DNA of 64,000 nucleotides. Origin: a virus. Its lineage: Duplodnaviria; Caudoviricetes. Both the position numbers and the translations under genes were made by a program. Under the pieces are notes generated by a model. The model saw nothing but the letters and a program-made list of their open reading frames with translations. It did no database searches and was not told the origin of the DNA. Location: IMG/VR virus record IMGVR_UViG_3300009093_000043, positions 1-64,000 of that record; one strand, given 5' to 3'. This document shows, one piece after another, positions 1,922 through 45,803 of this stretch. Position 1 is the first letter of the stretch. Every line of letters starts with the position of its first letter.

Positions 1922-2497
1922 CTAGGTGAGCGCTTTCCTCACCCAGGCTTTCGCGTCGGTCAGCTTCGGGAAGTCTGGTGGGGAGTTCTTTCCCGTGAAC
2001 GCTTGGTCTTCCGATTCGAGGTGGATCGTGAAGATCTTCTCACGCTGGCGAGAGGAGCCTATGAACTCGCCGTCTCCGCGAGTGATGGTTCCGACCTCGG
2101 CGCCGTTGAGGAGGATCTCGATCGTGTTCCCGCCCGCGTTGCGGAACTCGATCCCCTCACCCTTCGTCTCAGCGACGAACTGGTAGAGCCCGCGGGAGGC
2201 GGCGGGGACGATCTTCTTCAGCTTCACGAGGGCTTCGAGTCGCTTTTCGAGCGAGGGTCCCTCCATTTGGACGTAGTCGGTCCCGTCGCGCTCGGCCAAG
2301 GTTCTACGGATCTCCATCGCTGAGAAGCGCTTCTTCGGGTCCTTCTTCGCGACGTCTTCGGCTGCGCTGAGGATCTCTTCGTCCGAGAACTTCCGAGCGA
2401 CCGGAGCGCCGGCTGACTTCAGTAGGGGGAGGAGGTGCTCCCGAAGCTCAGGCTTCTCGTGAGCGAGACGAATCAATTTCGATCTCAGCGGCTTCAT
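1922..2497 (-). CDS. hypothetical protein, possible virion-internal protein; ends in TAG in frame with the next gene
   Basis: 191 aa; N-terminal LRSKLIRLAHEKPELREHLLPLLK helix; possible wHTH-like middle. Confidence 0.65.
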   Translation of the reverse strand: MKPLRSKLIRLAHEKPELREHLLPLLKSAGAPVARKFSDEEILSAAEDVAKKDPKKRFSAMEIRRTLAERDGTDYVQMEGPSLEKRLEALVKLKKIVPAASRGLYQFVAETKGEGIEFRNAGGNTIEILLNGAEVGTITRGDGEFIGSSRQREKIFTIHLESEDQAFTGKNSPPDFPKLTDAKAWVRKALT

Positions 2498-2912: not shown

Positions 2913-3989
2913 TTACGAGGCCTTCGGGGACAAGGTGTCTCGGACGAAGTCGAGGGCCTTCGTCATCCCTTCGAGCGAGCGTTCGAACCAGAAGTCCTCG
3001 CCCTTCCCCTTGTCTCGGAAGACGATGATCTTCACCGGAGCGATCTTCCGGCCCCATTCCAAGTCGATCGTGAAGGTCGTCTCTCCGACGACTTTCCGAT
3101 CCGCGAGGCGTCGGCAGATCCGAGAGTCGGACCCAGTGAAGTCCGCACACCAGCCCGGATAGCACTGACCGATGGAGACGGATCCCCACGACGGGTTGTA
3201 GAGGTCGTCCGACGCGACCCGCTCCTTCACAAGCAAGAAGAGAGGATCCGTATTCTTGTACTCCTCCCACTCGGCTTCCCACTTCGCTTGGGCTGCGTCG
3301 CGCTCGTCGCGTCGGGCTTGCTCCTTCGGATCGACCCACTTCTCGACGAGTACGAGCTTCAACCCCTCGGGTCGGTAGGTCGTACGAGATACCACCTCCC
3401 GGATCTCCCTGTCCTCGTCTTCTTCGTCCTCGTTGAGGCAACGGGTCTCGAAGATCGTGATCTTCCCTTCGGAGATCTCCGGATCCTTCTCGTCGTCGTA
3501 CGCGTACATCTCCTCCGGGAACTCCAACTCGGCCCATCCCTTCTCCATCGGATCCGAGAAGTCGTAGAAGCGCGTCTCGTAAGGACACGCCCAGAAGCAG
3601 CCGTTCACGACGAGGAGCTTCAGCTCCGCGTTGAATGAGTACTGGACCCAGCAGAAGCCATGTCCCTTCTTTGCCGCTTCGGGAAGGAAGTCCTTCCGCT
3701 TCCCGGTGTCGAGTTCGATCACGGTCTGGCCTTGGTAGTCCGCCCCGCAGACGAGGTAGTCGTGTCCGTTCGGGTGTCCCTCGACCCAGGCGTAGGGGAA
3801 CGAGTGGTAGTTGCGATTGACGACCGCGATCGACTCTCCTGTGTCGACGCGGGTCAGCTCTCCGATCGTGTAGTTCCAGCACCCCGGCTTCGTCGCCTTC
3901 TCCGAGACCTGAAGGACGTAACGTCCGCTCGGGCTGGTGATGGGGTCTCGCTTCTTCAATTCGACGGGGGTCTCGATCGTCTCAGTCAT
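2913..3989 (-). CDS. hypothetical protein (aromatic-rich, possibly beta-propeller-like)
   Basis: Long ORF; ATG at 3989 with GGAG upstream preferred over the ORF-track start at 4067. Confidence 0.7.
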   Translation of the reverse strand: MTETIETPVELKKRDPITSPSGRYVLQVSEKATKPGCWNYTIGELTRVDTGESIAVVNRNYHSFPYAWVEGHPNGHDYLVCGADYQGQTVIELDTGKRKDFLPEAAKKGHGFCWVQYSFNAELKLLVVNGCFWACPYETRFYDFSDPMEKGWAELEFPEEMYAYDDEKDPEISEGKITIFETRCLNEDEEDEDREIREVVSRTTYRPEGLKLVLVEKWVDPKEQARRDERDAAQAKWEAEWEEYKNTDPLFLLVKERVASDDLYNPSWGSVSIGQCYPGWCADFTGSDSRICRRLADRKVVGETTFTIDLEWGRKIAPVKIIVFRDKGKGEDFWFERSLEGMTKALDFVRDTLSPKAS

Positions 3990-4007
3990 GTTCAGTCTCC
4001 GGTGGAA

Positions 4008-4063
4008 GAAATGAGAAAGCCCCGGAGCCCACGAAGAGAATCCTCGTAGGTCCAGGGCTTTCC
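4008..4063 (-). terminator. intrinsic terminator-like hairpin downstream of the tRNAs
   Basis: Minus strand GAAAGCCC...GGGCTTTC inverted repeat with inner pairing, followed by TCATTTCTT. Confidence 0.55.
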
Positions 4064-4092
4064 TCAAGAAGTTGTACAGAATCTACGTCACA

Positions 4093-4165
4093 TGCCCTCG
4101 ACTGGAATCGAACCAGCCTACACGCGGGGTTAGAAGCCGCTGTTCCGCCAATGAACTACGAGGGC
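4093..4165 (-). tRNA. tRNA with CUA anticodon (amber suppressor); CCA not encoded
   Basis: GCCCTCG TA GTTC ATTGGCG GAAC A GCGGC TTCTAAC CCCGC GTGTAG GCTGG TTCGATT CCAGT CGAGGGC A: 7-bp acceptor, 4-bp D stem, anticodon loop TT-CTA-AC (C31-C39 mismatch), TTCGA T-loop. Confidence 0.85.
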
Positions 4166-4180
4166 TCGATCGCTTTACGC

Positions 4181-4252
4181 CGCACCCGGTAGGATTTGAA
4201 CCCACGTACGTTCGCTTTAGAAGCGACTGCCTGACCGCTAGGCTACGGGTGC
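4181..4252 (-). tRNA. tRNA with CUA anticodon (amber suppressor); CCA not encoded
   Basis: GCACCCG TA GCCT AGCGGTC AGGC A GTCGC TTCTAAA GCGAA CGTAC GTGGG TTCAAAT CCTAC CGGGTGC G: full cloverleaf, loop TT-CTA-AA. Confidence 0.88.
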
Positions 4253-4258
4253 TGGGAA

Positions 4259-4570
4259 TCAACTGAAAGCCAAGGGGAGATCTCGAACTAGCTTCCGCCC
4301 GGTCGGGGCGATAGCGATAGCAGCGAGAACGTTCCCCAAGTCCGGCTCCTCGAACCGGGAGACCGGAACGCCTTCTTGGACGGCTCGATCTGCGAGCGCC
4401 GAGAGGGACGTCAGGTCCTCCGTTTCGAGGAGCACGAGGGTGTTCGAAGTCGTGTACCACTCGCGGTCGATCTCGCCGAACCCGGCTCCGAACTCTCGGA
4501 GAGCGTGGCACAGCATCGCGGCGCGGAGACCGGCGGAGAGGTCGCGACGGGTCACGAGGAAGAGCTTCAT
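4259..4570 (-). CDS. peptidyl-tRNA hydrolase 2 (Pth2)-like protein
   Basis: 103 aa from ATG 4570 (ATGA overlap with upstream stop): KLFLVTRRDLSAG..AA..CHA...W...SNTLVLL...F.EPDL....AIAIAP....V.DLPL, the phage Pth2-fold pattern. Confidence 0.8.
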   Translation of the reverse strand: MKLFLVTRRDLSAGLRAAMLCHALREFGAGFGEIDREWYTTSNTLVLLETEDLTSLSALADRAVQEGVPVSRFEEPDLGNVLAAIAIAPTGRKLVRDLPLAFS

Positions 4571-5055
4571 GTCGCGACCCCGAGCCTCGCGGCCAGTTCG
4601 TCGCGTTCCTTCGTGAGCCGGGCGAGACGGTTCACCTCCTGGTCGCGGAGGAGCTTCCGCGACCGTTCGGCTTCTCGTTCCGCCTTCTCCTGAGCTTCCC
4701 TCTTCGCGGCTTCGATCTTCGCCAGGACCTGGGACTCGGCTTCGGCGAAGATCGCCTTCGCCTCGTTGTGGTAGGCTTCCTCTTCGCCGTCTTCGCAGTA
4801 GACCCAAGGATCATCAACCCGTAGATCTGCCTCGAAGCCGTCGATGAGGATGCGGTGTTCCCGAGGCTCGTACTCCGAGCCCGTCTCGTGAAGCCCGCCC
4901 CTCGCGAGGGATCCCGCGAGTGAGAGAACGATTTGTTCGCGATCCTTCGACGAAAGGACTTCGAAGAGCGCTTCGGTCTCGTCCTCGCGGTGTCCGCTAC
5001 AGCGGTCGTAGTTCCAGCCGTTCTTCCGGAAGGTGATCAGGACGTAGCGGCTCAT
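4567..5055 (-). CDS. hypothetical protein, C-terminal coiled coil
   Basis: 162 aa ORF tightly coupled to its neighbours in the Pth2/tRNA operon. Confidence 0.7.
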   Translation of the reverse strand: MSRYVLITFRKNGWNYDRCSGHREDETEALFEVLSSKDREQIVLSLAGSLARGGLHETGSEYEPREHRILIDGFEADLRVDDPWVYCEDGEEEAYHNEAKAIFAEAESQVLAKIEAAKREAQEKAEREAERSRKLLRDQEVNRLARLTKERDELAARLGVAT

Positions 5056-5058
5056 GGC

Positions 5059-5511
5059 TCAGGCCGCCTTCCGACGCGCGGCCGATCGCTCGGCTCGTTC
5101 GGCCCGAGCCTTCACGTTCGCTTCCACGAGGTGAGCCTCGAAGGCGGCCCGCTCCTCCTCGGAGGGCTTCTCGGAGAGCCAGACCAGGACGGTCTCGGCC
5201 GACTCGGAAACGACTCCTACGGCCTGCAGAGCGTCGAGGATGCCATGGGCACTCGGGGTGTTCTCGGTCTTCCGCTCGGTCACCCAGTACCGGCGTCCGC
5301 GGAGGAAGGCGTAGGCGAGACCGGTCTCCCGGATCGACTCCTTCAGGTCCGAGTTGGTCCCCCAGAAAGAGGCCAGCTGTCGGAGGCGGGTCGGTTCGCT
5401 GACGGGCGTCGCCTTCTTGTATGCGACGCGCTCACGCGTGTTCGTCTTCTTGCTTTCGACGACGGTCGAGAGCTTCTTCTTCAGTCCCAGGATCTGTTCT
5501 TTCGTTTCCAT
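5059..5511 (-). CDS. hypothetical protein (AYxFLRGRxY motif), first gene of the Pth2/tRNA operon
   Basis: 150 aa; GGAG Shine-Dalgarno at 5524-5521; motif recalled from phage proteins often adjacent to Pth2 (unverified). Confidence 0.75.
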   Translation of the reverse strand: METKEQILGLKKKLSTVVESKKTNTRERVAYKKATPVSEPTRLRQLASFWGTNSDLKESIRETGLAYAFLRGRRYWVTERKTENTPSAHGILDALQAVGVVSESAETVLVWLSEKPSEEERAAFEAHLVEANVKARAERAERSAARRKAA

Positions 5512-5517
5512 TGCGGT

Positions 5518-5616
5518 CTACTCCATCTGAGGTTTCGGGATCGTGTTGAGACGAAACCGAGACTTCGGAGGACCGCGAGCGGAACGAATCTACAGGTGGT
5601 GGTTCACGAGCGTCAT
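5518..5616 (-). promoter_or_regulatory. leader ORF with internal amber codon, RGPP arrest motif and SD-sequestering hairpin
   Basis: ATG 5616: MTLVNHHL*(TAG 5592-5590)IRSARGPPKSRFRLNTIPKPQME*(TAG 5520-5518); GCGGTCCTCC (5576-5567) pairs with GGAG-TA-GACCGC (5524-5513). Confidence 0.7.
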
Positions 5617-5659
5617 GGTAACCCTTACGCTTCGAACCGGCAAGAGGGGTCGATCATTT

Positions 5660-5893
5660 TCAGTATCGAGAGATCGCTCGGAGAGCGGCTTCACTCGGTT
5701 CCTCGTTCGGACGGATCGGCTCGATCACTTCTCCGGCCCTAGGATCTATGGCCGTAACCTGGAAGCCTCGGGCTCCGCAAGAGAGAAGGAGAAGACGCGC
5801 GGGGTCTCGCGAGAGCCAGCTCTCTACCAGCCCCCACTTCTCGATCTTGATCGAGGAAGGGCGTCTCGGGATTCGGGGGTCTGAGTCGCCCAT
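5660..5893 (-). CDS. hypothetical protein
   Basis: 77 aa ORF filling the gap; GAGG upstream of ATG. Confidence 0.45.
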   Translation of the reverse strand: MGDSDPRIPRRPSSIKIEKWGLVESWLSRDPARLLLLSCGARGFQVTAIDPRAGEVIEPIRPNEEPSEAALRAISRY

Positions 5894-5949
5894 GACCTCA
5901 AATTTAGAGGCTTGGGGGCGTAAGACAAGCCGAATCAGAGGAGAAACCG

Positions 5950-6414
5950 ATGGATCGCGTCTTCTGGCTGTTGGCGGTGGTGGTGGGAATCCTGTTCCTG
6001 ATCGAGTACGCTCGCGTCTACCTGAAGTGGAAGAAGGAGGAGCAGTACGCCCGAGAGATGAAGAGAGACAATTCCGAGTGGGTGAAGATCGTGAAGCTTC
6101 TCGCGGAACTGAATTGGATCTCCGATTCCGGCATGAGCAAGGAGACCCCCTACACCAGACTCTGGAGGAAGGAGGAGGGAGAGATCAAGTTGGAATTGGA
6201 GGTCTCAGGTACTTGGGAGAACCCTTCGGACCTGGTTCTCTGGGCCTGGGCGATGGAGGGCGAGGAGATGTGGGACACCAGTGTCTCCGTCGACTTCGAA
6301 GACCCGACTCAGATCGTCCCATATCTCCGCGACAACCTCCAGGACCGCGTCGATCGCGTCGCGAAGGTGGTTCTGGCTACCCGGCCTTCAGGACCGGCGT
6401 CCGAAGCGGCGTAG
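5950..6414 (+). CDS. hypothetical protein with N-terminal transmembrane helix
   Basis: 154 aa; VFWLLAVVVGILFLI; GAGGAG Shine-Dalgarno. Confidence 0.7.
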   Translation: MDRVFWLLAVVVGILFLIEYARVYLKWKKEEQYAREMKRDNSEWVKIVKLLAELNWISDSGMSKETPYTRLWRKEEGEIKLELEVSGTWENPSDLVLWAWAMEGEEMWDTSVSVDFEDPTQIVPYLRDNLQDRVDRVAKVVLATRPSGPASEAA

Positions 6415-15781: not shown

Positions 15782-15927
15782 GGTGTCTCCGTCTCTTCAT
15801 AGGAGCGGTAGCGCGGCCATGATTTGGCCACGTAGACGTTACCGGACTCGCTGAGGAAAAACGGACCTGTAACCCCGAGAGGTGGAATTCGATCGATGAG
15901 ATCTTTCCTTCAAGTACCATAATCTCC

Positions 15928-16185
15928 ATGAAGAAAGTATCAGACCCTATCGAAACCCTAATCCGAAAGGTGGAACTTGCGATCCAAGAACTTCGTGATG
16001 CCTTGTCCATAGAAGATCAGCCTCACGAGGAACCCGAAGCCGAGCCCGACTTCCACTCCCGCGCCTGGTGGGAGCGATACGACAAACAGGCGGAGGCTCG
16101 GGACCGAGCCCCGAAGGACGAGTACGGTCGCCCCGTCGACCTCTTCGGGAACCCGATTGAGCCTGACCCTTGGGAAAAGTGGTGA
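15928..16185 (+). CDS. hypothetical protein
   Basis: 85 aa, inserted on the opposite strand between structural genes. Confidence 0.55.
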   Translation: MKKVSDPIETLIRKVELAIQELRDALSIEDQPHEEPEAEPDFHSRAWWERYDKQAEARDRAPKDEYGRPVDLFGNPIEPDPWEKW

Positions 16186-19100
16186 CTACGGAGTGAGGAT
16201 GATGATGACTTCGCGATCGACGCCACCACCGCCAGATCCGGGAACGACCCCGGCCGAGGGCCAGTTGGGGGTCAAGATCGCCGGACGGAGGCCCGTAGGA
16301 AGCGGGTTGGGCCCGGAGTACGGGGTGACGTAGCTCGCCGGACCCAATAGGCCCAAGACCCCCGCCGCCCCTCCCGAGGCTCGAAGGAAGGTACTGAGGA
16401 CTCCGGGACCGGGTCCAGGGAACGGCCCGGAGGCGGTACCCGAGCCCGTGTAACCGAAGTTCTCCGAGTAGCTCGCTCCGTCGATCCCCAACTCTCGGAG
16501 ACCGGTTCCGTTTCCGGGACCGTCGCAGAAGGACGAGATCTTCCCCTCGGACCCTCCGTCGTCCAGTTGGAAGAAGTCCATCTGTTCGTAGAGGACGTTG
16601 GGGTCGTCGTTGAACTGACGGACGAGGTACTGATCTCGAAGGAAGTAGTTCGGGTCGACCGGGCCCGCGGGCGGGAAGGCCGGAGTCGGTCCGCCGTCGC
16701 CGGAGACCGTCGTCACCGTCGCCTCTCCCACCTGGCTCATAGGAACGGGAGGCGTCCCCTCGTTCAGGACAGTCTGGGACTCTTGAAGCGGTTGAGACTC
16801 CAGGTACGTGTTCGTGATCGGCTTCGAGACGGCGAAGACGATCGTCACGGGGAACCCGGCCGAGGGCAGGGCGTTCGAGAGAGTGATCTCTTGGCTGTCG
16901 GAGTTGAAGCGCCAGGTCGCGGGCGATAGTGGGACTCCCTCGACGATGACCTGGAAGACGCGGTTCGCGAAGATGTGGGCGGGTCGGATCGAAACGCGGG
17001 TCGTGGTGAGAGAGGCGACGACAACCTGCTCAGGCGTGAAGTCCTTCAGGTATTCACCGCTGGAGATCACGTTCCACTGGTTGAGCACCATCTTCTGAGG
17101 CGCTCGGTAGTCGATCGACGTGTGGGTGAAGACGCGGTACCGGACCTCATTCCAGAGCTGGAGAGAGGACGCCGCGGGGTTCAGCTTCCCGAAGAAGACA
17201 CTTCCGAAGCGAGTGTCGCTCGTGGAGCGAGGGAGACGCGCGTATTCGACGCGAGCCCAGGCGGCCGTCGGATCGAGGGACTGAGTCGCGAAGTCTCCAG
17301 TGTACCCGGAGGGTGGGTTGAGATCGGGGCGAAGGAAGATCGCGCCGAACGTCGGATCGACGAAGAGGCGAACCCAGCACTCACTCGTCCAGTCCATCTC
17401 GACGATCACGGAGGACGGATCGGAGTTCGGAACGGAGAGACCGTCGGTTCGGGGGATCTCCCAGTTGTCGAGGTCGCCGAAGTCGCCGCCCTTCCAGATC
17501 CCGAAGGTCCGGTGAAGGTTCGAGACCCCCACGATGTTCTCGAAGAGCGAGAGGCTGAAGAGCGAGGCCTCGAAGGACGCGCCGCTCTCCAAGTCGAGGT
17601 AGCCGAACGAGACGCCGTCCGAGGGGGCGATGAAGACGGGGAACGAGGCGAAGGGAGCCGTTCCCAGCAGGATGTCGTTCTCGTAGAGGCTGACGAGGTT
17701 CCCCGAGGGTGAGACGTTCAGTCGGTACGTCCTCGGGACGCCGTCGCTCCAGTTCGAGCCTACGAGGAGCGCGGCTCCCAGGGTCGAGGGGTCGCATAGG
17801 AGGATCGAGTCCGGACCCGAGAAGGCGACACCGATCTGACGCCCGCCGACGTCCGCGACGAACATGAGGCCGATGAAGTTCGCCCCCGAGCCCGAGACCA
17901 CGAACGAATCGACCGAAAGACGAAACTCGACCGTTCGATCTGTCGTCGTGAGAACCGGGAGAGACTTCGAGACGAGCCAGTCGGTCCCCGCGCCCGCGCC
18001 TGAAATCAGCGTTTCCGGACCGTTCGCGAACGTCACGGGCGTTCCGAAGTCGACCCATCCTTGAGAGGTGTAGGTGGTCGCGCCGACGAGGGAGATCGTA
18101 GCCTGGGGGAAGATCCTCTTCCCAGACCCGCCGTTGTTCTGGAAGAGGAGGTTACCCAACCGCGCTTCGCGGTGAGTGTCCTTCATGGAGATCGCGGCGC
18201 CGCCCGCTCCCGATGTATCTCTCGACAGCGAGAGGTGAGCGTCGAGAGCTACGACACGTCGACCGTCGAGGAACGGATCAATCAGGCCGTAGCCGTACTG
18301 AGTGTCGAGGGAAGCCTCGCCCGGAGTCCCGGTGAGTCGAAGGACACCCGAGACATTCGCCGAATCTCCGTACGGAGTCGTGAGGAACCACTCAGCGTCT
18401 TCCGGGTTCCCGGTCATCGTCGTGTCGACGACGGTTCCGCGAGAGAAGAGGGTCCCGCCGTCTGGCGTCGAGAGGTAGCGGACGAAGTCCCAGAGGGTCG
18501 TGTTCGTCGCCTTTCGGGAGAACGAGCCCCAGAGGTAGCGACCCGAGCCCATCGGGAGAACGTCGGGGCCGAGGTATGCGGGGGAGGAAAGGATCGGCCC
18601 GCCGATCACGGTGACGAGAGAACCTCCGGTGGCTCCGCCGAAGAGGAGCTGGACCGAGTCGTTCTTCGTGTCGGCGTAGAGGCGCCATGTGCACAGGCCG
18701 GCGTCCCACTCGGTCTCGAAGACGAGGTCCGCGAACTTGTTCCCGAAGAGGGCCGGATTCTCGGGGAAGCCCGGACCATCCACGACGATCGTGACAAGGT
18801 TCCGGGAGCTGTCGATGAAGACCTGGTCGACGGTGTAGACGCCCGTCTGGTTGCCGACGAGGATCTGGAATCGATTCCCCGCTGTGAGGAGCCTCGGGGC
18901 CGAGTCGAGCGGGACGGTGACGACGGTCGCGCTGAGGATCGTTCCCGGAGCCTTCGGGCCGACGATCCAAGAGGATACGTCACGAATCTCGCCCGGGCGC
19001 GCGAGGAGACCGATGTGCTTCAGTCCGTTCACGACGAGCGCGCCCGCGAGGTAGAGGCGGTGATCGTTGTGGAAGCCGAAGCCGACGCCAGTGAAGACGC

Positions 19101-27865: not shown

Positions 27866-28053
27866 TCACGGACCGAATGCTCGCAGCAGAGGTGATGATC
27901 CTGAAGCGCTTCCGCTCTGGTTGGCGCCAACGCCACCGGCTCGACGAGTTCGCTCGGGGGTTCGAGTCGATGAAGCTCGGAGGCTACGTCCAGGCGCTCC
28001 GCGCGATCCGCGAATCGAGAACTGCTCGCGAGCGTAAGAACCGACATGGCTGA
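27862..28053 (+). CDS. hypothetical protein
   Basis: 63 aa from ATG 27862 (ATGA overlap). Confidence 0.5.
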   Translation: MITDRMLAAEVMILKRFRSGWRQRHRLDEFARGFESMKLGGYVQALRAIRESRTARERKNRHG

Positions 28054-43391: not shown

Positions 43392-43574
43392 TCAAGCGGT
43401 ACGGAAGAAGACGAGGTGGGGTTGATCGTTCGAGATCTTCCCCTCGTACCAGACTCGCCCCGTCTTCAGCGTGTCGATCGCGAGGTCGACTCGCGAATCG
43501 GCGGCCTGGTGGCAGCGGAGGTACTTCTTTCCGCTGCCACACCAACAAGGTTCGTTACTGCCTAGAGGCTTCAT
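43392..43574 (-). CDS. SEC-C motif protein
   Basis: LGSNEPCWCGSGKKYLRCH; ATGA overlap with the upstream gene. Confidence 0.75.
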   Translation of the reverse strand: MKPLGSNEPCWCGSGKKYLRCHQAADSRVDLAIDTLKTGRVWYEGKISNDQPHLVFFRTA

Positions 43575-45742
43575 CCGCCCCCCAGGCTGGAGAGGAAGTC
43601 CGCCCCCGGATCTTCCTCCTTCATCGACTCGACCTTCTCCCCTCGAATCCACGAGTTGACCTTCGCCGCGAGGCTAGCGACCGACTCCTGAGCGTCTAGC
43701 ACGAGCCGTCTCTCCGTAGGGAAGTAGTTGGCGAACTTCGCGCTCTTCGTCTTCCGACCCTTCAGCCAGGTCGCGTTCTGATTCGATCCCCGCTGCTTCC
43801 GACGAGCCTCTACGACTTCCTCGGGGGCGAGGAGGAGAACCACGTACGGGTCCGCGCTCTCGTCGATCCTCGTCTTCTTGTTCATGTCCGAGAAGCGATC
43901 GCCGTCGAAGATCGTGTAGGGCCTCCAGAGGAGGTTCGCCTCCCAATACGTCAGCGTGGGGCCGACGTCGTGGCTGACCGTGTCGCCTCCGTCGAAGGTC
44001 CCGCCCGTGTAGTGACCGGCCAGGACGAAGTCCCGAGCGATCGTCCACTTCTGGTTCGGGACGAGTTCGAGAGGGACGTCTCCGACGATCGCCCGTACGA
44101 GGGTCGTCTTCCCCACCCCGGGCTCCCCTACGATCCAGATCGCCTTCGGACGGGGTCCGGTGTAGGTCGAGACTCGATGGCCGTCTGCAGCCTTCGAGGG
44201 GTCCCTATCGTACTCCTGCCCGGCCTCGACGTAGGCCTTCGCCTCGGCTTCTCTCTGCTCTTTCGAGGGCGGATTCTTCCGGTGCGAGGCGATGTTCTCG
44301 TTCGCCTTCTGGATCGTCTCCGAGGCCGGCTTCCCGGTCCACTCTTCGAGGTGCTTCATGATCCTCGCGTCTTCGGCGTCGCGAATGGATTCGACGGCCT
44401 TCGCCTCTATCTCCATTTCCGAGAAGTCTTTCGAGATCTCAGTCATCATGGACTTGAAAGCCGGGGACTTCTTGAGGGACGAGGGCTTCGAAGCCGGAAC
44501 CTCTTCGGCGGGAGGTGCTTCGACCCCGAAGAAGGCCAGGAACTCGTTCTTGTGGGCCTCGTCTGCGGCGTCCTTCGCTACGAGGTTTGCGTGGCGCTCC
44601 TTCGGGTTCTTGAAGCGAGTGTCGAAGAAGTTCTTCTCGCGGACCTTCTCCTCCGAGACGGTTCCGCACTTCAGCATGTCGACTCGGACGTAGCAGACGA
44701 CCGAGATCCGCTCCCAGTTGTCCTTCCCCTCGACCGCCGACTTCATCTCCGTGTTCCCGTGCCACTCGTGGACGTCCATCCCGAGGAAGTCCCCGGTCCG
44801 GAGGTCGACGGCGCAACGGTACTTCGGGAAGATCGTCCGGCCGCCCTCGTACTTGTCCTCGCCTTCGAGGACGGTGAGGTTGCCGAAGCCGTTCGGGAGG
44901 TCGCCCGCGTCCTTATGGACGCCCGTTCGGTAGTTCTTGTTGACGGTGATCGTACTGAAGACCGTGTCCCCGATCATCCACCCCTTCTTCGTGAGGGAGT
45001 CGGTGACGATCGACTCGACACCCTTCTGGACGGAGACCTCGTCCGAGACGAACTGGCGTTGGTTCTCCCAGCGCTCCGGGATGCACTCCTTGTACTTCAC
45101 GTTGATCGCTTCGAAGAACGGGATCGCCATCGCGAACTCGGTCACGTGTTCGCGCGTGAAGGCGGTCTGGCGGCAGTAGGGGTTTCGCGGCGTCCAGTTG
45201 AAGTTGCCGACGATCCCGCTGAGGACCTGGTTCGACTCGCTCGTGTTCGAGATGTGACCGTCTTCGGTGAGGTAGCCGGCGGTCGAGCTCCCTCGGCTGA
45301 TGAAGCGAGAAGGATCCTTCCCGAGCCCTTCGGCAGTTGCGATCCCCGCGGCCATCCCGCGATTCTTCGAAGTCCCGGCGGCCCGGCGGAGGATCCCGTA
45401 GGCCGGATCAGTGATCCGCTTCGGGAAGACCTTCTTCCGGAGGCACATCAAAAGACGGCTCTCGCGATCGTCGAACGGGTTCTCTACCCCCTCCACGACC
45501 TTCTTCATCGGCTTGTAGATGTCGACGTCCTCGTTGTGGGCGAGGATCACGTAGGCCGAATCGTCGAGGAAGTGTCCCCCGAGCTTGTCGGTCTCGACGT
45601 CGGAGAGGACTCCCTTTCCGGTGAGCTGGATCTGGAGGACGCCGTCTTCCGGACGCTTCCACTCCCACCACTCCAAGCCGTCTCGGTTCTTCAGTTCGGC
45701 GAAGTCGGGATGGGGGGGATCGATGAACTCGTTTTCTGACAT
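43571..45742 (-). CDS. TET/JBP-family 2OG-Fe(II) dioxygenase fused to a P-loop nucleotide kinase
   Basis: TVNKNYRTGVHKDAGD (HxD), YEGG..IFP, GD.L.MDVH.WHGNT and RISVVCY.R; C-terminal IVGEPGVGKTT, AGHY...TFDGGD, FDGDRF, RR.QRGSNQN.TWLKGR.TK. Confidence 0.88.
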   Translation of the reverse strand: MSENEFIDPPHPDFAELKNRDGLEWWEWKRPEDGVLQIQLTGKGVLSDVETDKLGGHFLDDSAYVILAHNEDVDIYKPMKKVVEGVENPFDDRESRLLMCLRKKVFPKRITDPAYGILRRAAGTSKNRGMAAGIATAEGLGKDPSRFISRGSSTAGYLTEDGHISNTSESNQVLSGIVGNFNWTPRNPYCRQTAFTREHVTEFAMAIPFFEAINVKYKECIPERWENQRQFVSDEVSVQKGVESIVTDSLTKKGWMIGDTVFSTITVNKNYRTGVHKDAGDLPNGFGNLTVLEGEDKYEGGRTIFPKYRCAVDLRTGDFLGMDVHEWHGNTEMKSAVEGKDNWERISVVCYVRVDMLKCGTVSEEKVREKNFFDTRFKNPKERHANLVAKDAADEAHKNEFLAFFGVEAPPAEEVPASKPSSLKKSPAFKSMMTEISKDFSEMEIEAKAVESIRDAEDARIMKHLEEWTGKPASETIQKANENIASHRKNPPSKEQREAEAKAYVEAGQEYDRDPSKAADGHRVSTYTGPRPKAIWIVGEPGVGKTTLVRAIVGDVPLELVPNQKWTIARDFVLAGHYTGGTFDGGDTVSHDVGPTLTYWEANLLWRPYTIFDGDRFSDMNKKTRIDESADPYVVLLLAPEEVVEARRKQRGSNQNATWLKGRKTKSAKFANYFPTERRLVLDAQESVASLAAKVNSWIRGEKVESMKEEDPGADFLSSLGGG

Positions 45743-45803
45743 GGCTACCTCTTACGCGCGCGGTTTCGAAACTCTACTCACAAACAGCGAATTCAGTCGC
45801 GCG

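Follow-up and report, generated by a model that had tools for sequence, protein, structure and literature searches.

The window analysed here is the first 64 kb (64,000 nucleotides) of a 97,639-bp virus contig, IMG/VR record IMGVR_UViG_3300009093_000043, with a G+C content of 62%. Baseplate_J and sheath-initiator domains are encoded in the window, which therefore derives from a contractile-tailed phage. Reads matching the stretch occur in rhizosphere DNA runs, as for a soil phage, and one DNA run with matching contigs is possibly the source of this contig. On the minus strand, between positions 5616 and 4093, the window carries a compact unit: a short leader open reading frame (ORF) closed by TAG, three genes for proteins of 150, 162 and 103 amino acids (aa), the last of which resembles peptidyl-tRNA hydrolase 2 (Pth2), and two tRNAs with the anticodon CUA. 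Comparison with related loci identified a conserved module in which the signal in the leader is matched to the nearby tRNA, and in which read-through of the leader stop may control translation of the genes that follow.

The leader starts at ATG 5616-5614, encodes eight codons (MTLVNHHL) and ends at TAG 5592-5590 (5590-5616 overall). In the read-through frame the TAG is followed by a four-codon spacer, IRSA, and by codons for Arg-Gly-Pro-Pro (RGPP; CGC GGT CCT CCG, 5577-5566), which together form a read-through segment at 5566-5589; the tail of this frame (5518-5565) extends to a second TAG (5520-5518). The 150-aa gene (5059-5511), assigned by hidden Markov model (HMM) to a family named p150 here, ends in TGA and is separated by 3 nt (GCC) from the ATG of the 162-aa gene (4567-5055). 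The latter is a variable insert between p150 and the PTH2-like gene (4259-4570, 103 aa), whose ATG overlaps the TGA of the 162-aa ORF (ATGA). The first tRNA, tRNA-CUA no. 1 (4181-4252; anticodon loop UUCUAAA, last base G), begins 6 nt past the stop of the PTH2-like gene, and tRNA-CUA no. 2 (4093-4165; loop UUCUAAC, last base A) follows after 15 nt. Folding placed a terminator-like hairpin with a U-rich tail behind the tRNAs (4003-4066). The hairpin itself, 4066-4012, has a predicted energy of -39.7 kcal/mol (z -5.23; 0 of 200 shuffles equally good), and a consensus terminator scan gave a weaker match inside it. All of these features are on the minus strand. The initial annotation had described this module from leader to terminator, and every element was found in its place with all details borne out. 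The short gaps and the overlap, followed by a strong terminator hairpin, also agree with its description as one unit and suggest co-transcription.

A blastn search of the unit against a phage collection returned a single match, a 59-nt similarity in a tRNA. Searches with the PTH2-like protein by tblastn matched 215 phage records, 206 of them Mycobacterium phages, and a pattern scan of viral contigs yielded 44 loci with a PTH2-like relative. In 34 of the 44, a tRNA with a CUA, UUA, odd or UUCAA-type loop is present within ~1.7 kb of the PTH2-like gene (CUA in 16, UCUA in an 8-nt loop in one, UUA in one, UUCAA-type in 13 and other odd loops in three); the remaining ten have no such tRNA (L010, L021, L027, L028, L029, L033, L034, L035, L040 and L045). 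The gene order recurs in related phage DNA beyond chance.

The short leader ORF and its stop have homologues in L002, L081, L082 and many further loci. In L002, the closest relative first found, the homologue of the 150-aa protein is 55% identical and is preceded by a short ORF, a TAG, three codons and then R-G-P-P. A scan for R-(G/A)-P-P codons indicated that this arrangement recurs in most loci, some hundreds of bases before the PTH2-like gene. The peptide R-G-P-P is kept across loci despite differing codons, and is replaced in some by RAPP, RSPP or RDPP. In the window, RGPP lies in the read-through frame four codons past the leader TAG, and its first base is 66 nt from the ATG of the 150-aa gene on the same strand. 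Across 20 loci the next start codon lies 53-89 nt (mostly 60-75 nt) from the first base of RGPP, and the ORF after the leader belongs to the p150 family in all 20. Conservation of the leader at the nucleotide level only was considered and dropped: RGPP lies in the +1 frame in L007 and L025, and other loci use other codons. In the available text of PMC12992588, RGPP is described as causing, in PURE systems as well as in vivo, the most robust arrest of the RAPP-like motifs; the arrest is tolerant of differing N-terminal contexts, and EF-P does not relieve it. The same text lists RGPP among the most avoided tetrapeptides in bacterial proteomes and reports RAPP/RGPP upstream ORFs (uORFs) before genes of diverse function; it mentions neither phages nor suppressors.

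Variation within the phage itself is compatible with a translated peptide. A near-identical strain, represented in contigs of two other runs, carries two spacer changes, at 5578 and 5581, that leave the read-through peptide unaltered. It also lacks one nucleotide at 5533, in the tail past RGPP, which argues against coding constraint in that tail. This fits a peptide that is important up to RGPP and not beyond, as weak support because depth was below 5 in each run. The tail (5518-5565) is probably untranslated if arrest is efficient. The second TAG (5520-5518) shares the frame of the 150-aa gene and precedes its ATG by 9 nt, and double read-through without arrest would yield an N-terminally extended 150-aa protein. 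Longer leader peptides with the run QNYPQM-(I/L/F)-(L/F)-(L/RE) were seen in L018, L024, L025, L026, L137 and L141. This run precedes TAG-type and UGAA-type signals alike, so part of the leader peptide itself may matter.

The leader signal covaries with the neighbouring tRNA. A first set of 19 distinct viral-contig loci, including the window, has a p150 gene, a leader and a nearby tRNA, and signal and tRNA match in all 19. An in-frame TAG accompanies a CUA anticodon in six (the window, L002, L008, L011, L018 and L026), and an in-frame TAA accompanies UUA in L023. Elsewhere RGPP is reached in the +1 frame. It follows UAGA in L007, and there only in that frame, where the tRNA has the 8-nt loop CCUCUAAU, which holds UCUA; it follows UGAA, again only in the +1 frame, in eight loci with UUCAA-type loops (L009, L012, L013, L015, L016, L019, L024 and L025). 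The shift comes after AUAA in L022, with loop GGUUAUGU (UUAU), and at CUAU, just before the stop, in L039 and L041, whose loops contain AUAG.

A scan of metagenome contigs yielded 80 loci, and the 63 that were distinct from the first set made up a second one. Leaders were scored by a rule fixed beforehand, under which the leader starts with ATG and its stop is either in frame at no more than 63 nt from the motif or one base out of frame. By this rule 18 loci had both leader and tRNA, and 16 of these matched. Seven further matches were read by hand: TAG with CUA behind GTG starts (L090, L091, L108 and L122), TAA with UUA (L100), TAG with CUA before RSPP (L134), and UAGA with an 8-nt UCUA loop (L135). 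The second set therefore gave 23 matches in 26 loci, and both sets together 42 in 45 testable loci. Some loci are close relatives (L081/L082, L137/L141, L148/L149), so the number of independent designs is smaller than the number of loci. A triplet TGA leader accompanies a UCA tRNA with a 7-nt loop in L098; ARAGORN put this tRNA and that of L135 on the opposite strand. Four loci (L103, L128, L139 and L146) have a leader and no tRNA in the short DNA covered.

We regard the existence of a conserved, tRNA-matched leader module as close to certain. The suggestion in the initial annotation that the tRNAs could act on the leader's own UAG gains from these comparisons: the leader is kept among relatives, with RGPP behind its stop in the read-through frame, and the covariation between signal and anticodon argues for such an action. 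Related tRNAs with 8-nt or otherwise enlarged anticodon loops are candidate natural quadruplet decoders. These are L007, L084 and L135 for UAGA, L022 for AUAA, L039 and L041 for CUAU, and L009, L012, L013, L015, L016, L019, L024, L025, L118 and L138 for UGAA. Better stem pairing and the leader frames point to the 8-nt reading of the UUCAA-type loops.

The RGPP codons are also predicted to pair with the start of the next gene. RNAfold gave -50.4 kcal/mol for 5640-5495 (z -2.85; 2 of 200 shuffles equally good). In the predicted structure, positions 5576-5567 (GCGGUCCUCC) pair with GGAG (5524-5521) and GACCGC (5518-5513), and 5588-5580 pair with the first codons of the 150-aa gene (5510-5501), enclosing an inner hairpin. 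The predicted helix, on the minus strand at 5501-5588, would thus sequester the Shine-Dalgarno (SD) sequence of the 150-aa gene. Over 20 loci, the expected number of pairs between the 12 nt of RGPP codons and the SD/start window was 2.8-10.9, with values of at least 7.5 in 17, and it exceeded the mean for shuffled RGPP codons (0.8-7.1) in every locus. The Pro-Pro codons are mostly CCU-CCN, the complement of the Shine-Dalgarno sequence, and the RGPP codons would therefore serve twice.

Building on the anatomy of the unit, the family membership of its proteins, the conservation of the leader, its covariation with the tRNA and the predicted helix, we think it fairly likely that a read-through-gated stalling leader unmasks translation of the 150-aa and PTH2-like genes. 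One transcript would probably run from just before the leader to the hairpin at 4066-4012 and contain the leader, three genes and two tRNA-CUA. Without amber suppression, ribosomes would terminate at the leader UAG after eight codons. The RGPP-codon stretch would then stay paired with the SD/start region of the 150-aa gene, and this gene and the coupled genes downstream would therefore be poorly translated. Once tRNA-CUA is processed, charged and active, some ribosomes would read the UAG, add four codons and stall on Arg-Gly-Pro-Pro. A ribosome stalled there would cover the 5' strand of the helix and free the ribosome-binding site, switching on the 150-aa protein and, by translational coupling, the 162-aa and PTH2-like proteins. 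The induced proteins would likely handle what read-through leaves behind, for example peptidyl-tRNA that has dropped off or become stuck and ribosomes that have stalled, with the PTH2-like enzyme acting as hydrolase and p150 and a neighbouring 358-aa protein as its partners. A feedback loop had been proposed in the initial annotation, which named no target of control by the leader; its link between tRNA and leader is supported, but the evidence points to a more specific translational switch with an arrest peptide and SD unmasking. The other roles it had suggested (rescue under compromised host RF1, use against anti-phage defence, binding to RF1 or the ribosome) gained no support here.

The 103-aa protein has the PTH2 fold and belongs to that family, in a divergent subfamily, an assignment we consider solid. 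Its own match to PF01981 is marginal (23.9 bits against a cut-off of 23), and 35 of 36 aligned relatives match the same family, with a best E value of 9.8e-14. A phmmer search of the PDB with the protein alone gave no match, whereas the family profile found seven solved Pth2-type chains at E values from 4e-11 (2zv3) to 4e-6. The AlphaFold2 (AF2) model has a predicted local distance difference test score (pLDDT) of 98, and among the 15 PDB matches that Foldseek returned at E <= 0.001, Pth2 structures ranked first (2zv3, 3erj, 1q7s, 1wn2 and 1xty), 1q7s being human Bit1/PTRH2. The archaeal Pth2 of M. jannaschii (MJ0051, 2zv3) has the same fold (E 6e-9, template-modelling score 0.82, root-mean-square deviation 2.4 Å, 110 columns). 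Both proteins have the N-terminal K...R.DL and Q..HA elements, and the phage protein is shorter (103 aa), lacking a four-residue insert. Among its relatives Asp10, His22, Glu75 and Pro76 are invariant and Asp77 is nearly so. When NCBIfam and PADLOC were run on the four small proteins, only Pth2 models rose above noise, all below threshold.

The p150 family has no annotation to date: neither the window protein nor ten sampled members matched a Pfam family. A p150 HMM match lies directly upstream of the PTH2-like gene in 25 of the 44 loci of the pattern scan and in 35 of the 63 of the second set. Its core reads R...AY-(G/A)-x-LRG-xx-Y...E, with R61, R71, G72 and E79 invariant. Among 1.84 billion representatives, 2883 clusters matched at E <= 0.001, and the best 150 of the 2883 were all 68-230 aa long. 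The confident AF2 model (pLDDT 96) comprises a long hairpin of helices, a small helical part and, at the C-terminus, another long helix. Structural searches with it were uninformative, Foldseek against the PDB giving a best E value of 0.26 and a wide VIA-align search only generic helical hairpins (Z <= 8.3). The ESM Atlas held no usable match for p150 or the 162-aa protein (p162), its models of the two being poor (predicted template-modelling scores 0.27 and 0.59).

Several observations weigh against the switch as proposed. Pairing between RGPP codons and SD is weak in L022, L023 and L041, and RNAalifold, run on a MAFFT alignment of the leaders, returned a trivial 2-bp stem only and did not recover the long-range helix. 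For this reason pairs were counted for a helix in a fixed register that we named ourselves. In this register 73.9% of cells were paired versus 39-57% with a slid partner, the covariation score was 0.235 versus at most 0.161, and one helix pair carried compensatory changes (AU 9, UA 3, UG 3, CG 1). Covariation in the fixed register is modest, both sides varying in 2 of 9 pairs and 8 of 500 shuffles reaching the score. The sequencing runs with the stretch are DNA runs, with no RNA run among them. Three loci do not fit the pairing of leader and tRNA: in L142 and L150 a TAA leader accompanies a tRNA whose loop, AUUUUAA, ARAGORN reads as UUU, and L110 reaches RGPP only by a +1 shift, with a plain CUA tRNA alone seen. 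Two others have a TAG leader and lack the tRNA, L021 having no CUA tRNA among the 32 other tRNAs of a 47-kb fragment and L028, in which RDPP stands for RGPP, having no tRNA in a 221-kb record. ARAGORN reads several UUCAA-type loops as Glu(UUC). Under the general Rfam model, the UUCAA-type tRNAs are forced into 7-nt loops that carry mismatches.

Further points concern the enzyme and the purpose of the switch. The score of the 103-aa protein against the NCBIfam Pth2 equivalog is 18.9 bits, with a cut-off of 126. Its GKGK loop is two residues short and has Leu at the aligned lysine, and E-P-D replaces the D-A-G of archaeal enzymes. When the profile is aligned to 2zv3, the Asp of D-A-G corresponds to the invariant Glu75, and a nearby Thr to Gly. 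Mutagenesis of Sulfolobus Pth2 reportedly identified as catalytic the Lys of the GKGK loop, the Asp of D-A-G and the nearby Thr; a remodelled active site is possible for the phage protein. The model also gives no reason for induction to depend on tRNA activity, nor a purpose for the suppressors, and the phage has no clear genes with in-frame TAG.

The same switch could also serve to restrain read-through. The PTH2-like protein and p150 would then release the leader peptidyl-tRNA, or deacylate or hydrolyse the acylated forms of the suppressor, which would reset the switch and cap read-through in a negative, homeostatic loop. Production of the enzyme only after activation of the tRNA suits a limiter or reset no less than a helper, and the active-site region of the enzyme differs from that of housekeeping archaeal Pth2. 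The leaders lack a secretion signal and carry a stable, EF-P-resistant RGPP arrest, hence a release route would be needed; host Pth and rescue systems could, however, clear the leader complex. Nothing in the data bears on substrate choice, and the occurrence of the PTH2-like family in large tRNA arrays without p150 or leader suggests a general role in tRNA recycling. We consider restraint by the products unlikely.

A transcriptional output of the same input appears less probable still. A ribosome that stalls at RGPP, or fails to, would in that case control Rho-dependent or intrinsic termination in the leader and thereby the amount of the entire transcript with its tRNAs, so that the suppressors would be autoregulated positively or negatively. 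The leader helix is long and stable, and the tRNAs lie downstream in the same unit, which would make a true feedback loop; a synthetic counterpart, in which a leader-peptide UAG gates transcription through an unmasked rut site, is described in the available text of PMC6412442. However, the conserved partner of the RGPP codons is the SD/start region of the next gene, 53-89 nt away, which is typical of translational unmasking. No U-tract follows the leader helix, and the terminator scan found no minus-strand terminator inside the leader.

Another reading is a phage wholly or partly recoded at TAG, whose tRNAs would simply decode in-frame TAG in phage genes. The two tRNA-CUA are the sole tRNAs that ARAGORN finds in the 97,639-bp contig, and both are well formed, with a cloverleaf, a CUA anticodon and a 7-nt loop; one pair in the anticodon stem of no. 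2 is mismatched. They score 59.1 (no. 1) and 46.4 bits (no. 2) against Rfam RF00005, for which the gathering score is 29. The nearest tRNAs to no. 1 are module tRNAs of other loci (L012, 76%; L002, 74%), and the nearest to no. 2 are the CUA tRNAs of L043 and of mycobacteriophage-like arrays together with tRNA-Lys(CUU) of those arrays; such similarity of tRNA bodies may hint at the amino-acid identity of the tRNA-CUAs. Stops were counted in a crude, composition-based set of 96 ORFs, which end in TGA (65), TAG (19) or TAA (12). Of the 19 ORFs that end in TAG, six share a frame with the ORF that follows, which is about the one-third chance rate, and TGA- and TAA-ended ORFs behave alike. Genes of 3635, 1725, 1142, 1095 and 1037 aa are open under table 11, and no clear in-frame TAG was seen inside conserved or long genes.

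Two TAG-ended genes count in favour of recoding. The 191-aa gene (1922-2497, minus strand) is closed by TAG and has the same frame as the 311-aa gene (974-1909) 12 nt on. Fusion of the two through TAG 1924-1922 was considered and dropped: the 311-aa homologue in L081 (62% identity) aligns from its first residue and the fetched L081 stretch showed no homologue of the 191-aa gene, so there is no support there for a read-through fusion. The 1725-aa gene also ends in TAG, and its next 75 in-frame codons are coding-like (GC by codon position 0.68/0.41/0.72). This extension stops at another TAG, inside a 404-nt minus-strand stretch without a called gene (15782-16188). Given the open long genes and the chance rate of in-frame neighbours, we judge recoding very improbable, and the suppressors are thus not required for general decoding. 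Least probable of all, and already disfavoured, is an ordinary tRNA islet with a helper hydrolase, constitutively expressed beside a chance short ORF and RGPP: PTH2-like genes are an annotated component of cluster C mycobacteriophage tRNA arrays, ~96% sharing the gene in one array grouping according to the available text of PMC5966550, and RGPP or RAPP occurs 24 times in the six frames of the whole contig, but the signal-matched leader recurs in most testable loci, the RGPP peptide is kept with different codons and stands at a fixed distance from the following start codon, and the helix is likewise conserved.

Regulation by arrest peptides that unmask an SD sequence is a known class; for the input of the proposed switch, a suppressor tRNA from the same unit, and for the genes it would regulate, the literature searched held no description. 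Short upstream frames that report decoding or termination capacity and set downstream expression are familiar from the trp and his leaders, which sense charged tRNA by attenuation, and from RF2 (prfB), which is autoregulated at an in-frame UGA. These leaders sense normal tRNA or release-factor supply and act by terminator choice or programmed frameshift, whereas the leader in the window would sense a suppressor tRNA, apparently through a dedicated arrest motif and SD unmasking.

The likeness to regulatory arrest peptides of the RAPP/RGPP type is extensive, as far as these are described in the available texts of PMC12992588, PMC10951233 and PMC7897499. In ApdA, ApdP and ApcA, and in SecM with RAGP, a short uORF ends near R-(A/G)-P-P, lies co-directionally a few tens of nucleotides before the regulated gene, and can open a helix that holds the regulated ribosome-binding site once the ribosome stalls; the window has the same arrangement, with the helix predicted. 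The motif in the window differs in standing behind a stop, or in relatives behind a four-base signal, so that it would be reached by non-standard decoding with a tRNA encoded in the unit. Its nascent chain would be very short, ~16 residues at the stall, its leader has no secretion signal or pulling force for release, the regulated genes are a PTH2-like hydrolase set and not Sec/YidC components, and the element is phage-borne.

The nearest published match found is an engineered switch with UAG in a leader, in which suppressor-tRNA-dependent translation past UAG gates a downstream gene, as proposed here (PMC6412442, in its available text). That switch is synthetic and transcriptional (a tna/trp-type leader with rut unmasking), whereas the one in the window is natural, phage-borne and apparently translational. 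A homologous PTH2-like protein (34-40% identity) is encoded in the cluster C mycobacteriophage arrays (Alice gp150, Myrna gp84), for which the available text of PMC5966550 suggests extra rescue capacity. In Alice, an annotated suppressor tRNA (cta) comes after gp150, annotated as peptidyl-tRNA hydrolase, inside a large tRNA array, and in Myrna (L036) the gene also lies inside the array, with a CUA tRNA 157 nt after it by ARAGORN. These arrays hold 20-40 tRNAs and a transfer-messenger RNA (tmRNA), whereas the window has a minimal version, with two suppressor tRNAs, a leader and p150; in L036, L042, L046 and L047 there is no p150 HMM match and no RGPP leader beside the PTH2-like gene. Within the literature collection searched, no suppressor- or quadruplet-tRNA-gated arrest leader was described.

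The initial annotation had placed two uncharacterised genes in the unit; the 150-aa gene is indeed a core family, and the 162-aa gene, found in few loci, is not. The 162-aa protein has no Pfam or NCBIfam family and a weak match to phrog_14651 (E 0.0019). Its relatives occur only in L080, L081, L085 and L086 among the fetched loci, L086 duplicating L085, and L002 has another ORF of ~90 aa in its place. Most loci lack the gene, and in these p150 abuts the PTH2-like gene. In L080 the 162-aa protein is 66% identical to that of the window, compared with 100% for the PTH2-like and 99% for the 358-aa protein. By these comparisons the 162-aa gene appears to be a fast-changing insert in an otherwise near-identical unit.

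The 358-aa gene (2913-3989, minus strand) lies beyond the terminator, outside the unit as first annotated, and its neighbourhood in other phages marks it as a putative further conserved partner of the module. Relatives adjoin the PTH2-like gene in 17 fetched loci and lie between p150 and PTH2 in L021, L091, L100, L103 and L134. In L135 and L146 a relative and p150 occupy a single frame between two stops, possibly as a fusion. At least 407 members make up this well-conserved family, with 44-67% identity among the best matches. Among the 120 matches listed, no Pfam domain is on record and the names are 'hypothetical protein' or one automatic label; a phmmer search of the PDB with the 358-aa protein gave no match. 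One member comes from the genome of a Sorangium, which may hint at the group of the host.

Upstream of the leader, a 77-aa ORF (5660-5893, minus strand) is kept in the closest relatives only, with tblastn identities of 49% in L081 and L082 and 42% in L002, and profile searches (Pfam, NCBIfam and phrog) assigned it to no family. The motif GCGTAAG lies at 5630-5624 on the minus strand, 7 nt upstream of the leader ATG. The 97.6-kb contig contains 24 copies versus ~12 estimated from base composition, and most, including that before the leader, are 7-14 nt before a start codon (for example, window positions 5624-5630, 342-348, 28032-28038 and 45751-45757). GCGTAAG could act as an initiation signal, or as a -10-like promoter of messages that are nearly leaderless; a promoter scan of 3800-6200 found no sigma-70-like site. 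Elsewhere in the window, a 723-aa protein (43571-45742, minus strand) matches the Tet_JBP 2OG-Fe(II) oxygenase domain at E 3e-21 and, weakly, a P-loop nucleotide kinase, and is likely a DNA base-modification enzyme.

A broader reading of the module is tentative, and we hold it to be doubtful. Any non-standard decoder, whether an amber, ochre or opal suppressor or one of the four-base-codon tRNAs of the relatives (UAGA, UGAA, AUAA or CUAU), would report its own activity through a matched leader and RGPP stall. The stall would induce p150, the 358-aa protein and the remodelled Pth2 as a new ribosome- or peptidyl-tRNA-handling machine, making deliberate miscoding tolerable in infection across a large phage system. 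If this were true, controlled read-through or frameshifting of host or phage messages would be an infection strategy, and the relatives would offer ready-made natural quadruplet tRNAs with built-in sensors.

The proposed switch, if true, would be a natural gene switch with suppressor-tRNA activity as its input. To our knowledge, no arrest peptide or attenuator has been reported to sense such activity. It would also explain why a suppressor tRNA stands beside a Pth2-like gene in phages with a standard code, an association that is visible in annotated mycobacteriophages and for which we know of no previous explanation. The purpose of phage suppressor tRNAs and the management of their toxicity become testable. 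The related loci suggest natural four-base decoding in phages with a built-in read-out, which is of interest to genetic-code engineering, and the p150 family, with ~2,900 representative clusters, would gain its first functional context.

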